Below, one piece after another: positions 41,610 to 41,698 of a stretch of DNA of 64,000 nt; positions within the stretch are counted from its first letter, which is position 1, and the number at the start of each line of letters is the position of its first letter. Below the pieces are notes generated by a model. That model was not told where the DNA came from. It saw nothing but the letters and a program-made list of their open reading frames with translations, and made no database searches. Both the position numbers and the translations under genes were made by a program. Source of the stretch: a virus (lineage: Duplodnaviria > Heunggongvirae > Uroviricota > Caudoviricetes). The DNA lies in IMG/VR virus record IMGVR_UViG_3300037067_009442, positions 157,721-221,720 of that record. The stretch is one strand, 5' to 3'.

Positions 41610-41698
41610 GCCCCCGTGCCCGAGCGGTCTAAGGGAGAGGACTTTAAATCCTTCACAGGTTATGCTGAGTCCCGGGTTCGAATCCTGGCGGGGGCGCC
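41610..41698 (+). tRNA. Type II (long variable arm) tRNA, Ser-like, with anticodon loop CUUUAAA giving anticodon 5'-UUA-3' (ochre-suppressor-like)
   Basis: Cloverleaf folded by hand. The 7-bp acceptor stem is GCCCCCG/CGGGGGC. The D arm is CCC-GAGCGGTCTAA-GGG. The anticodon stem is GAGGA/TCCTT. The 18-nt variable arm has a short stem. The T arm is CCGGG-TTCGAAT-CCTGG. The discriminator is G, followed by CC. The D-loop and anticodon loop closely resemble E. coli tRNA-Ser(UGA), differing at position 35 (G to U). Confidence 0.6.

Follow-up and report, generated by a model that had tools for sequence, protein, structure and literature searches.

The analysed window, a 64,000-nucleotide stretch of a Caudoviricetes virus genome (IMG/VR record IMGVR_UViG_3300037067_009442, positions 157,721 to 221,720), contains a tRNA gene with the anticodon 5'-UUA-3', which is complementary to the stop codon UAA. 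The presence of this UUA-anticodon tRNA is confirmed by two independent methods, ARAGORN and Rfam. A stop-reading tRNA occupies the same position in related genomes, and the window itself follows the standard genetic code. On balance, the sequence evidence favors a functional, probably weak and probably serine-charged ochre/amber suppressor of a standard-code phage, which would serve read-through and not code reassignment. The gene comprises the following elements, given in window coordinates.

41610..41696 (+): type II tRNA body, positions 1-73, supported by ARAGORN, by the Rfam tRNA model (52.7 bits) and by a consensus fold with the related locus L114.
41644..41646 (+): anticodon 5'-UUA-3', from the sequence, ARAGORN and the Rfam alignment.
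41697..41698 (+): encoded C74 and C75, from the sequence and from the ARAGORN end as compared with the Rfam end.

ARAGORN reports 41610-41698 (+) as the sole tRNA within the 64-kb window and labels it tRNA-Stop, with anticodon tta at position 35. The Rfam model RF00005 covers 41610-41696 over its full length (1-71 of 71), scoring 52.7 bits where the gathering score is 29 (E-value 1.9e-08). The acceptor stem, GCCCCCG/CGGGGGC, has 7 bp, all of them paired. The D-arm is of the tRNA-Ser type, with a 3-bp D-stem and a loop, AGCGGUCUA, that contains G18G19. The anticodon stem GAGGA/UCCUU includes a G27-U43 wobble pair, and the T-arm is composed of CCGGG-UUCGAAU-CCUGG. The variable region is long (18 nt), placing the tRNA in type II, and holds a CAG/CUG stem that is also kept in L114. 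In our own pairing this stem extends to up to 5 pairs with one A-A mismatch, with G-U pairs in L114. The discriminator is G73 (41696), and the tRNA spans 87 nt to this position. C74 and C75 are encoded on the plus strand and are followed by T, so that A76 is not encoded and a host enzyme must complete the CCA end.

The anticodon loop, CUUUAAA (41642-41648), is aligned by Rfam with high posterior probability and places U-U-A at positions 34-36. It consists of 7 nt, with U33 and an A36-A37-A38 context that provides a purine at 37. An earlier note, made from the letters of this DNA, had described a type II tRNA with a long variable arm, discriminator G, anticodon UUA and a loop one base away from that of tRNA-Ser(UGA). 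All of these features are borne out, the cellular tRNA-Ser loop being CUUGAAA. The outcomes that the note had named as fatal, another triplet at 34-36 or a low tRNA score, did not occur, and no register giving UAA (Leu) was found in the tRNA fold. A single-sequence minimum free energy fold fails to give the cloverleaf, a common result with tRNAs, and the covariance-model and consensus folds take precedence over it. The locus thus has what characterizes a suppressor gene, an intact tRNA body with a stop-complementary anticodon.

Related loci were traced with the nearby Ro60 gene as a marker. The slot of the tRNA is readable in eight related genomes. The search of related genomes that the earlier note had advised returned a stop-reading tRNA in all eight and an identical tRNA in one of them. 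The loci are listed below with the identity of their Ro60; the small open reading frame (ORF) mentioned is the one that precedes the tRNA.

L112 (Ro60 95% identical): UUA tRNA identical to that of the window, with diverged flanks.
L114 (Ro60 67%): same type II body as the window, anticodon CUA.
L115 (Ro60 67%, 512-kb contig): type I, CUA, at 4818-4889.
L118 (Ro60 58%, 443-kb contig): type I, CUA, at 4806-4877.
L247/L248 (Ro60 58%): two CUA tRNAs, one on either side of the small ORF.
L249 (Ro60 58%, 226-kb contig): type I, UUA, at 8235-8306.
L250-252 (Ro60 59%): type I, CUA, at 9194-9265 in L250.
L253/254 (Ro60 57%): type I, UUA, with a loop CUUUAAA identical to that of the window.

The anticodon is CUA in five of these relatives (L114, L115, L118, L247, and L250) and UUA in the other three (L112, L249, and L253). 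Together with the window, nine genomes carry ten tRNAs at the slot, with UUA in four genomes, CUA in five, and a sense anticodon in none. The count excludes L116 and L117, whose contigs end before the slot, L255 and L257, in which the gene on the far side of the tRNA lies ~8 kb from Ro60 and past the range covered, and the contig carrying protein P0007, for which a gene table alone shows a 67-nt gap after the small ORF. The Rfam tRNA scores of L112, L114, L115, and L118 are 52.7-60.6 bits.

The tRNA bodies at the slot are mixed: the type II ones have G73, and the type I ones have G73, U73 or A73. C34 and U34 switch within both lineages, in type II between L114 and the window and in type I between L118 and both L249 and L253. 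The consensus fold of the seven type I tRNAs is a cloverleaf with compensatory changes in 12 of 20 pairs. The type II pair, formed by the window and L114, also yields a cloverleaf, with three compensatory acceptor pairs. That ten of ten tRNAs carry CUA or UUA cannot be due to chance, and stop-reading (of UAG, and with UUA also of UAA) thus looks to be under selection in this clade. The inserted amino acid, judged from the bodies, is probably not conserved among the relatives. Such variation fits generic read-through better than sense reassignment. What appears to be new here is a suppressor that is a conserved, position-fixed feature of a standard-code huge-phage clade, with CUA and UUA alternating on interchangeable bodies.

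In L247, the two tRNA(CUA) genes differ from each other and lie at 6467-6540 and 6799-6875, before and after the small ORF. The first has the anticodon arm GAGGA-UUCUAAA-UCCUC, which it shares with the window and L114 tRNAs, both type II.

The UUA anticodon is one base from UGA (Ser) or GUA (Tyr), the anticodon stems of some relatives' tRNAs are imperfect, and L112 has other lesions. These features would suit a neutral or decaying gene that began as a sense tRNA, such as tRNA-Ser(UGA), acquired an anticodon mutation and is now being lost. Such a history is scarcely credible, however, given that all ten slot tRNAs in the nine genomes have kept CUA or UUA and none a sense anticodon. Moreover, compensatory changes keep the helices, the window and L112 share an identical tRNA while their flanks differ, and the covariance-model scores are high.

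Matches outside this group of loci were sought at the sequence level. Neither blastn of the tRNA nor megablast of the surrounding 13 kb against GenBank phages gave a match. A pattern of D-arm plus anticodon stem, with the anticodon left free, had 0 matches in IMG/VR and 0 in 185,579 genomes, so recent capture from a sequenced host is unlikely. The 111 exact matches of the 15-nt anticodon arm in IMG/VR were dismissed as chance, with no ARAGORN tRNA at the site in the 80 loci inspected.

The window has a GC content of ~50% and contains ~90 densely packed genes, which are mostly orphan. Several of its large ORFs match PHROG phage families. The accessory set recognized by Pfam includes peptide deformylase, dCTP deaminase, NUDIX, dephospho-CoA kinase, and N6/N4 DNA methylase enzymes, as well as a sigma-70-like protein, a NUMOD3-motif (homing-endonuclease-type) protein, and a Ro60/TROVE-vWA protein. 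The Ro60 is 100% identical to JGI protein P0001, which is encoded on a 228,619-bp metagenomic contig. Its closest relatives are on contigs of 197-512 kb, and one of them, 48% identical, belongs to a 363-kb IMG/VR viral genome. No capsid or terminase gene lies within the window. The window is a probable part of a huge phage, judging by these matches. Its best cultured Ro60 match is Myxococcus phage Mx1 (42%), which together with a TIGR04563 match hints weakly at a host among the Myxococcota.

Under the standard code, 92.5% of the window lies in stop-to-stop ORFs of 100 aa or more. Greedy gene-set coverage is 0.916 under code 11, 0.914 with TAG as sense, 0.916 with TAA as sense, and 0.873 with TGA as sense. 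The stop-codon tabulation proposed in the earlier note was run on the window and gives, for the ~90 genes, TAG 36, TGA 32-33, and TAA 22. TAG is thus the commonest terminator, and TAA and TAG together account for 64%. The note had argued against whole-genome recoding, and its view holds for the window: reassigning any stop does not improve coverage, and all three terminators are common. Even the genes flanking the tRNA end in such codons, the upstream small ORF in TAA and the downstream convergent gene in TAG. The median extension to the next in-frame stop is 12.5 codons after TAA, 14.5 after TAG, and 13 after TGA. Among the window genes, backup stops are not enriched after TAA or TAG, and the next in-frame stop is not biased to TGA. 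Large ORFs are uninterrupted under code 11, including a 1642-aa ORF in the window, a 1178-aa Collar-domain protein in L247, and several 500-650-aa proteins in L253, L255, and L257. A scan of ~60 ORFs (~50 against Pfam) turned up neither an aminoacyl-tRNA synthetase nor a release factor. The window therefore lacks the marks of a recoded phage, with a normal code-11 density and no depletion of a recoded stop as terminator. It uses the standard code, without adaptation to strong suppression.

Outside the window, the 228.6-kb genome might still contain late (structural or lysis) genes that read TAG and/or TAA as sense, the window being a standard-code early block. Phage recoding with suppressor tRNAs, at times limited to genome blocks, is documented (Borges et al. 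preprint; Mgcod abstract). The relatives carry mostly CUA, the anticodon typical of code-15 phages, and the 64 kb examined represent ~28% of the contig, which leaves room for such a block and limits the read-through interpretation. This alternative is nevertheless unlikely. Depletion of the reassigned stop is expected before or with recoding, but TAG is the top terminator here and TAA is undepleted. The large ORFs near the locus are intact under code 11 in both the window and the relatives, and the GC content is not low. TAA recoding is absent from large phage surveys. In addition, close relatives differ in tRNA body and discriminator, so that the residue inserted would vary among them.

In-frame stops in conserved genes were sought by filtered tblastn of gene sets across all loci. 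Most stops from the all-frame tblastn scan were discarded as off-frame or antisense artefacts, and two events survived filtering. One is a TAG and one a TAA; the earlier note had suggested looking for TAA-interrupted essential genes in related genomes. L112, which carries the UUA tRNA identical to that of the window, has an in-frame TAG at 5375-5377 (+) in a dual-specificity-phosphatase-like gene; the window gene, with Glu there, matches it at 95% over 152 aa apart from this codon. L249, which carries a type I UUA tRNA, has an in-frame TAA at 19383-19385 (+) in a sigma-70-like gene, where L250 and the window have Glu. Beyond the L249 TAA, 58 in-frame codons remain conserved until the regular stop, among them those of the C-terminal segment LLAKGCSPEEIVVRLGLP. 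Each of the two stops is a single G-to-T change of a Glu codon. In-frame stops in conserved genes are seen only in UUA-bearing relatives, and no in-frame TAG was found in ~79 kb from CUA-bearing relatives. In-frame stops such as these are expected if the suppressor lets nonsense codons persist.

Several candidate read-through sites in the window were rejected. In-frame ORF pairs do not represent single interrupted genes: Pro_CA_2 and NUDIX are distinct genes, as are an ORF of unknown type and peptide deformylase (PDF). Read-through at 3924 was discarded since a new 98-aa gene begins right after the TAA; the arrangement of this 98-aa ORF with a phosphatase is absent from L114. A 221-aa ORF without family match (55119-55784, minus strand) separates the genes for peptide deformylase and dCTP deaminase, which are neighbors in relatives. 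Its TAA terminator lies two codons before the deformylase ATG, in the same frame.

The identity of the amino acid carried by the window tRNA was approached by comparison with cellular tRNAs. The D-arm has an architecture common to bacterial tRNA-Ser and tRNA-Tyr. Searching 185,579 genomes with the D-arm and T-loop retrieved 52 tRNAs, comprising ~29 Ser(UGA), 2 Ser(GCU), 1 Ser(GGA), 1 Tyr, and 19 long-arm Cys(GCA). In the long-arm comparison set, Ser is associated with G73 (36 of 42 cases), Tyr with A73 (6 of 6), and long-arm Cys with U73 (10 of 10). The length to position 73 is 82-91 nt for Ser and 83-86 nt for Tyr in this set. The G73 and the 87-nt length of the window tRNA thus favor Ser. 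The tRNA has no serine anticodon (NGA or GCU). Seryl-tRNA synthetase (SerRS) does not use the anticodon, and UUA therefore does not preclude serylation. The acceptor stem speaks against Ser. The E. coli tRNA-Ser identity set includes the acceptor pairs G1-C72, G2-C71, and A/U3, and every cellular tRNA-Ser compared begins with GGAG or GGAU, that is, with G2-C71 and A/U3. The window tRNA departs from this with G1-C72, C2-G71, and C3-G70. Serine is the best guess for the charged amino acid on these features, and probably the right one.

The same search yielded type II tRNA-Cys genes of a kind unusual for bacteria. These tRNAs, 83-88 nt long with a GCA anticodon, combine U73 and a long variable arm with a D-arm of the tRNA-Ser type, GCCCGAGTGGTCTAAGGGA. 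They occur in metagenome-assembled genomes of Phycisphaerales and other Planctomycetota and in one from Saprospiraceae, at L202 990-1074(-), L209 1293-1377(-), L240 6756-6843(-), L233 4154-4240(+), and ~15 more loci.

In the favored explanation, the tRNA would be co-transcribed with the small ORF upstream, which is the simplest model, excised by RNase P and a 3' nuclease, and finished by the CCA-adding enzyme. Host SerRS would then charge it by recognizing the long variable arm and G73, not the anticodon. Competing with release factors, U34-U35-A36 would pair with UAA and, through U-G wobble, with UAG, and some ribosomes would insert the amino acid and go on past the stop. Bacterial tRNAs that read U-starting codons receive i6A37 in an A36-A37-A38 context, the context present here. 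Ochre suppressors of E. coli, with the UUA anticodon, are weak and decode UAG as well as UAA (Eggertsson and Soll 1988, as cited in PMC8386662). Normal use of the three terminators, combined with the lack of a backup-stop signature, indicates that suppression is probably partial or timed. With 64% of the window genes ending in TAA or TAG, partial suppression is the sole compatible mode. The benefit selected in the clade appears to be read-through as such, through which in-frame UAG or UAA in phage genes would be tolerated or exploited.

A number of observations weigh against this explanation. No gene in the window needs suppression, the in-frame neighbors split by TAA or TAG being separate genes. 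Because TAG is the commonest terminator, an efficient suppressor would lengthen ~40% of the phage proteins by a median of ~14 codons. The two in-frame stops in ~60 kb do not differ significantly from 0 in ~79 kb. Both could be ordinary recent pseudogenisation. The small ORF of L112 has a 45-nt internal deletion (~1270-1300) that removes an SLYFP segment, which makes simple decay possible. Some of the relatives' anticodon stems contain non-standard pairs, namely C-A and C-U in L115, A-C in L118, C-U in L249, and U-U in L250, and these mismatches might tune decoding efficiency; the stems of the window and L253 are perfect. Finally, we infer from sequence the expression, the serylation, the wobble reading of UAG, the suppression efficiency, and the biological payoff.

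The tRNA gene lies in a cluster with the order PTH2-like gene, ~60-aa TIGR04563 ORF, tRNA, convergent ADP-ribosylglycohydrolase (ARH) gene, and Ro60 gene. The features of the cluster in the window are as follows.

41094..41423 (+): PTH2-like (peptidyl-tRNA hydrolase 2) gene, first of the cluster, with weak NCBIfam Pth2 matches (E=7.5e-05).
41409..41414 (+): TATAGT, a -10-like hexamer (with GTGACC at 41386-41391), by consensus match only.
41420..41602 (+): 60-aa small ORF of the TIGR04563 family (NCBIfam, 76.3 bits, cutoff 65).
41698..42627 (-): ARH gene, convergent with and abutting the tRNA (Pfam PF03747, E=1.7e-69).
42771..44450 (+): gene for a Ro60/TROVE and vWA protein (Pfam PF25045 and PF05731).

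Ro60 is a protein of the RNA quality-control type. The PTH2-like assignment extends to the relatives, whose orthologues have precomputed PF01981 matches. The small ORF is found directly upstream of the stop-reading tRNA in every relative. In the window, it terminates in TAA 7 nt ahead of the tRNA start; in some relatives, the tRNA overlaps its 3' end. Its product possibly has a ribbon-helix-helix fold. On the other side, base 41698 doubles as the last base of the ARH TAG stop codon, and ARH also adjoins the tRNA in L112, L114, L247, L249, and L253. TATAGT or a near variant lies ~5-12 nt before the start of the small ORF in most genomes, with sites in L112, L115, L118, and L249. In the window, the hexamer codes for Tyr-Ser of the PTH2-like protein, whereas in L118 the same hexamer holds the TAG stop of that gene. 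Its retention despite differing reading contexts makes the conservation look DNA-level. From its sequence and position, TATAGT is possibly the promoter of a unit formed by the small ORF and the tRNA.

The genes around the tRNA suggest a further role. A suppressor within an island for RNA and translation protection (PTH2-like, ARH, and Ro60) might occupy A-sites at UAG or UAA and thereby serve counter-defence or host manipulation. It might relieve stalls that arise from a shortage of release factor 1 or an attack on it, compete with stop-codon-specific, ribosome-dependent toxins, or corrupt host termination. The tRNA keeps a fixed position, in nine genomes, in a cluster of RNA- or translation-related and ADP-ribosylation-reversing genes, and stop-reading is conserved while the amino acid is not. 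Phage tRNAs are known to act against defences that target tRNAs (PMC10264068). All of this is circumstantial, however; gene neighborhood in phages is weak evidence of common function, and the hints at the host, TIGR04563 and the Mx1 Ro60 (42%), are weak. A counter-defence role is accordingly doubtful. A broader version can be put forward tentatively, as a possibility with the odds against it: a dedicated amber/ochre tRNA would be a fixed part of a translation- and RNA-protection island in standard-code huge phages, again a read-through device and not a means of reassignment. It might keep ribosomes moving at UAG or UAA when host termination is limiting or attacked, or might make chosen phage genes, such as the sigma-like factor, conditional on the tRNA. 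The repeated replacement of bodies and the switching from CUA to UUA might then reflect selection on stop-reading alone.

The position of the tRNA exactly between convergent genes, and close to Ro60, also raises the option of an RNA that does not decode. It could be a Ro60 ligand standing in for a Y RNA, a processing or termination signal between the convergent genes, or a decoy. Rfam gave no Y RNA beside the Ro60 genes of the window and the relatives. Ro60 normally has a nearby Y RNA partner, and the bacterial Y RNA YrlA mimics tRNA (PMC4201824). Nonetheless, the RNA of the window is a complete canonical tRNA: its 7-bp acceptor stem is open, and it has a discriminator and part of the CCA end. 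A structural or ligand role would leave unexplained why unrelated bodies always carry CUA or UUA. The ARH end of the cluster is also ~8 kb from Ro60 in more distant relatives (L255 and L257). A non-decoding function is thus very unlikely. Assignment of the tRNA itself to the Y RNA family was rejected: it has the canonical order, an anticodon arm, and an open acceptor, and no Rfam match to that family even at E<=5.

YrlA is a permuted tRNA mimic, composed of a T-arm, a closed acceptor-like stem, and a D-arm, in which a Ro-binding helix replaces the anticodon arm; Ro60-carrying phages are known to encode YrlA-type RNAs (PMC4201824). The present locus resembles YrlA loci in having a tRNA-related RNA gene near a Ro60/TROVE gene (rsr), but differs in its canonical tRNA order. 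Many Ro60/TROVE genes ~45% identical to that of the window lie within 6 kb of arrays of 8-24 tRNAs (metagenomic loci L119, L120, L125, L126, L130, L138, L145, L149, and L189). In Myxococcus phage Mx1 (L259, record 48933-66561), 21 tRNAs and a peptidyl-tRNA hydrolase (PTH) surround Ro60. Such arrangements suggest that phages tend to carry Ro60, PTH, and tRNA genes as a group.

Classical suppressors of E. coli include the ochre suppressors supC/supO (tRNA-Tyr, UUA), supG (tRNA-Lys), and supB (tRNA-Gln) and the amber suppressor supD (tRNA-Ser, CUA). Like these, the window tRNA is an otherwise normal tRNA with UUA in the anticodon (CUA in some of the others), and from established knowledge it is expected to read UAA and, by wobble, UAG. 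It resembles supD in its long variable arm and G73, marks of the Ser type, which is charged without regard to the anticodon. The E. coli suppressors, however, are laboratory or spontaneous mutants of cellular tRNAs, whereas the window tRNA is a resident phage gene that keeps its position across a clade.

Alternatively coded phages (crAss-like, Lak, Garnet/Jade/Agate, and others) carry suppressor tRNAs that reassign TAG to Gln or TGA to Trp (Borges et al. preprint). TAA reassignment did not appear in surveys of >10,000 jumbo phage genomes. These phages and ours share a phage-encoded, stop-complementary tRNA, and the CUA of the relatives is the code-15 anticodon. They differ in that no sign of recoding is seen here, with TAG and TAA free as terminators at ~50% GC, and in that the anticodon is UUA, the amino acid is likely Ser rather than Gln or Trp, and the identity varies among relatives. 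Klebsiella phage phiKp24, which uses the standard code, has an annotated tRNA-Sup-TTA of unknown function (PMC8386662), so that a UUA tRNA in a standard-code phage is already known as a kind. The phiKp24 tRNA-Sup-TTA is reported to have an Arg-type body and is one of many tRNAs, whereas the window tRNA is the sole one in 64 kb, is type II and Ser-like, and is syntenic in a clade.

Phage suppressor tRNAs are usually explained by reassignment. Here they are kept in genomes that show no sign of reassignment and that end more genes in TAG than in either other stop. Should the tRNA be active, these phages would tolerate or exploit partial read-through, a use of suppressors that has hardly been studied. 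Candidate roles are nonsense-codon tolerance, conditional expression, relief of termination stalls or counter-defence, and recoding of late genes outside the sampled DNA. Natural Ser-type ochre suppressors, whose charging would not depend on the anticodon, are also of practical interest for nonsense suppression and genetic-code engineering.

The window contains other accessory genes that are unusual for phages. They encode an R2K-clade ATP-grasp protein (36851-37588, minus strand), a papain-family cysteine protease (17010-17849, plus strand), and a DnaJ-domain protein (6410-7507, plus strand). The N6/N4 DNA methylase (61537-63408, plus strand) has 623 aa, compared with 445 aa in relatives, and its Pfam domain either is split or covers residues 319-587 alone, pointing to an insertion or to an extra domain at the N-terminus.

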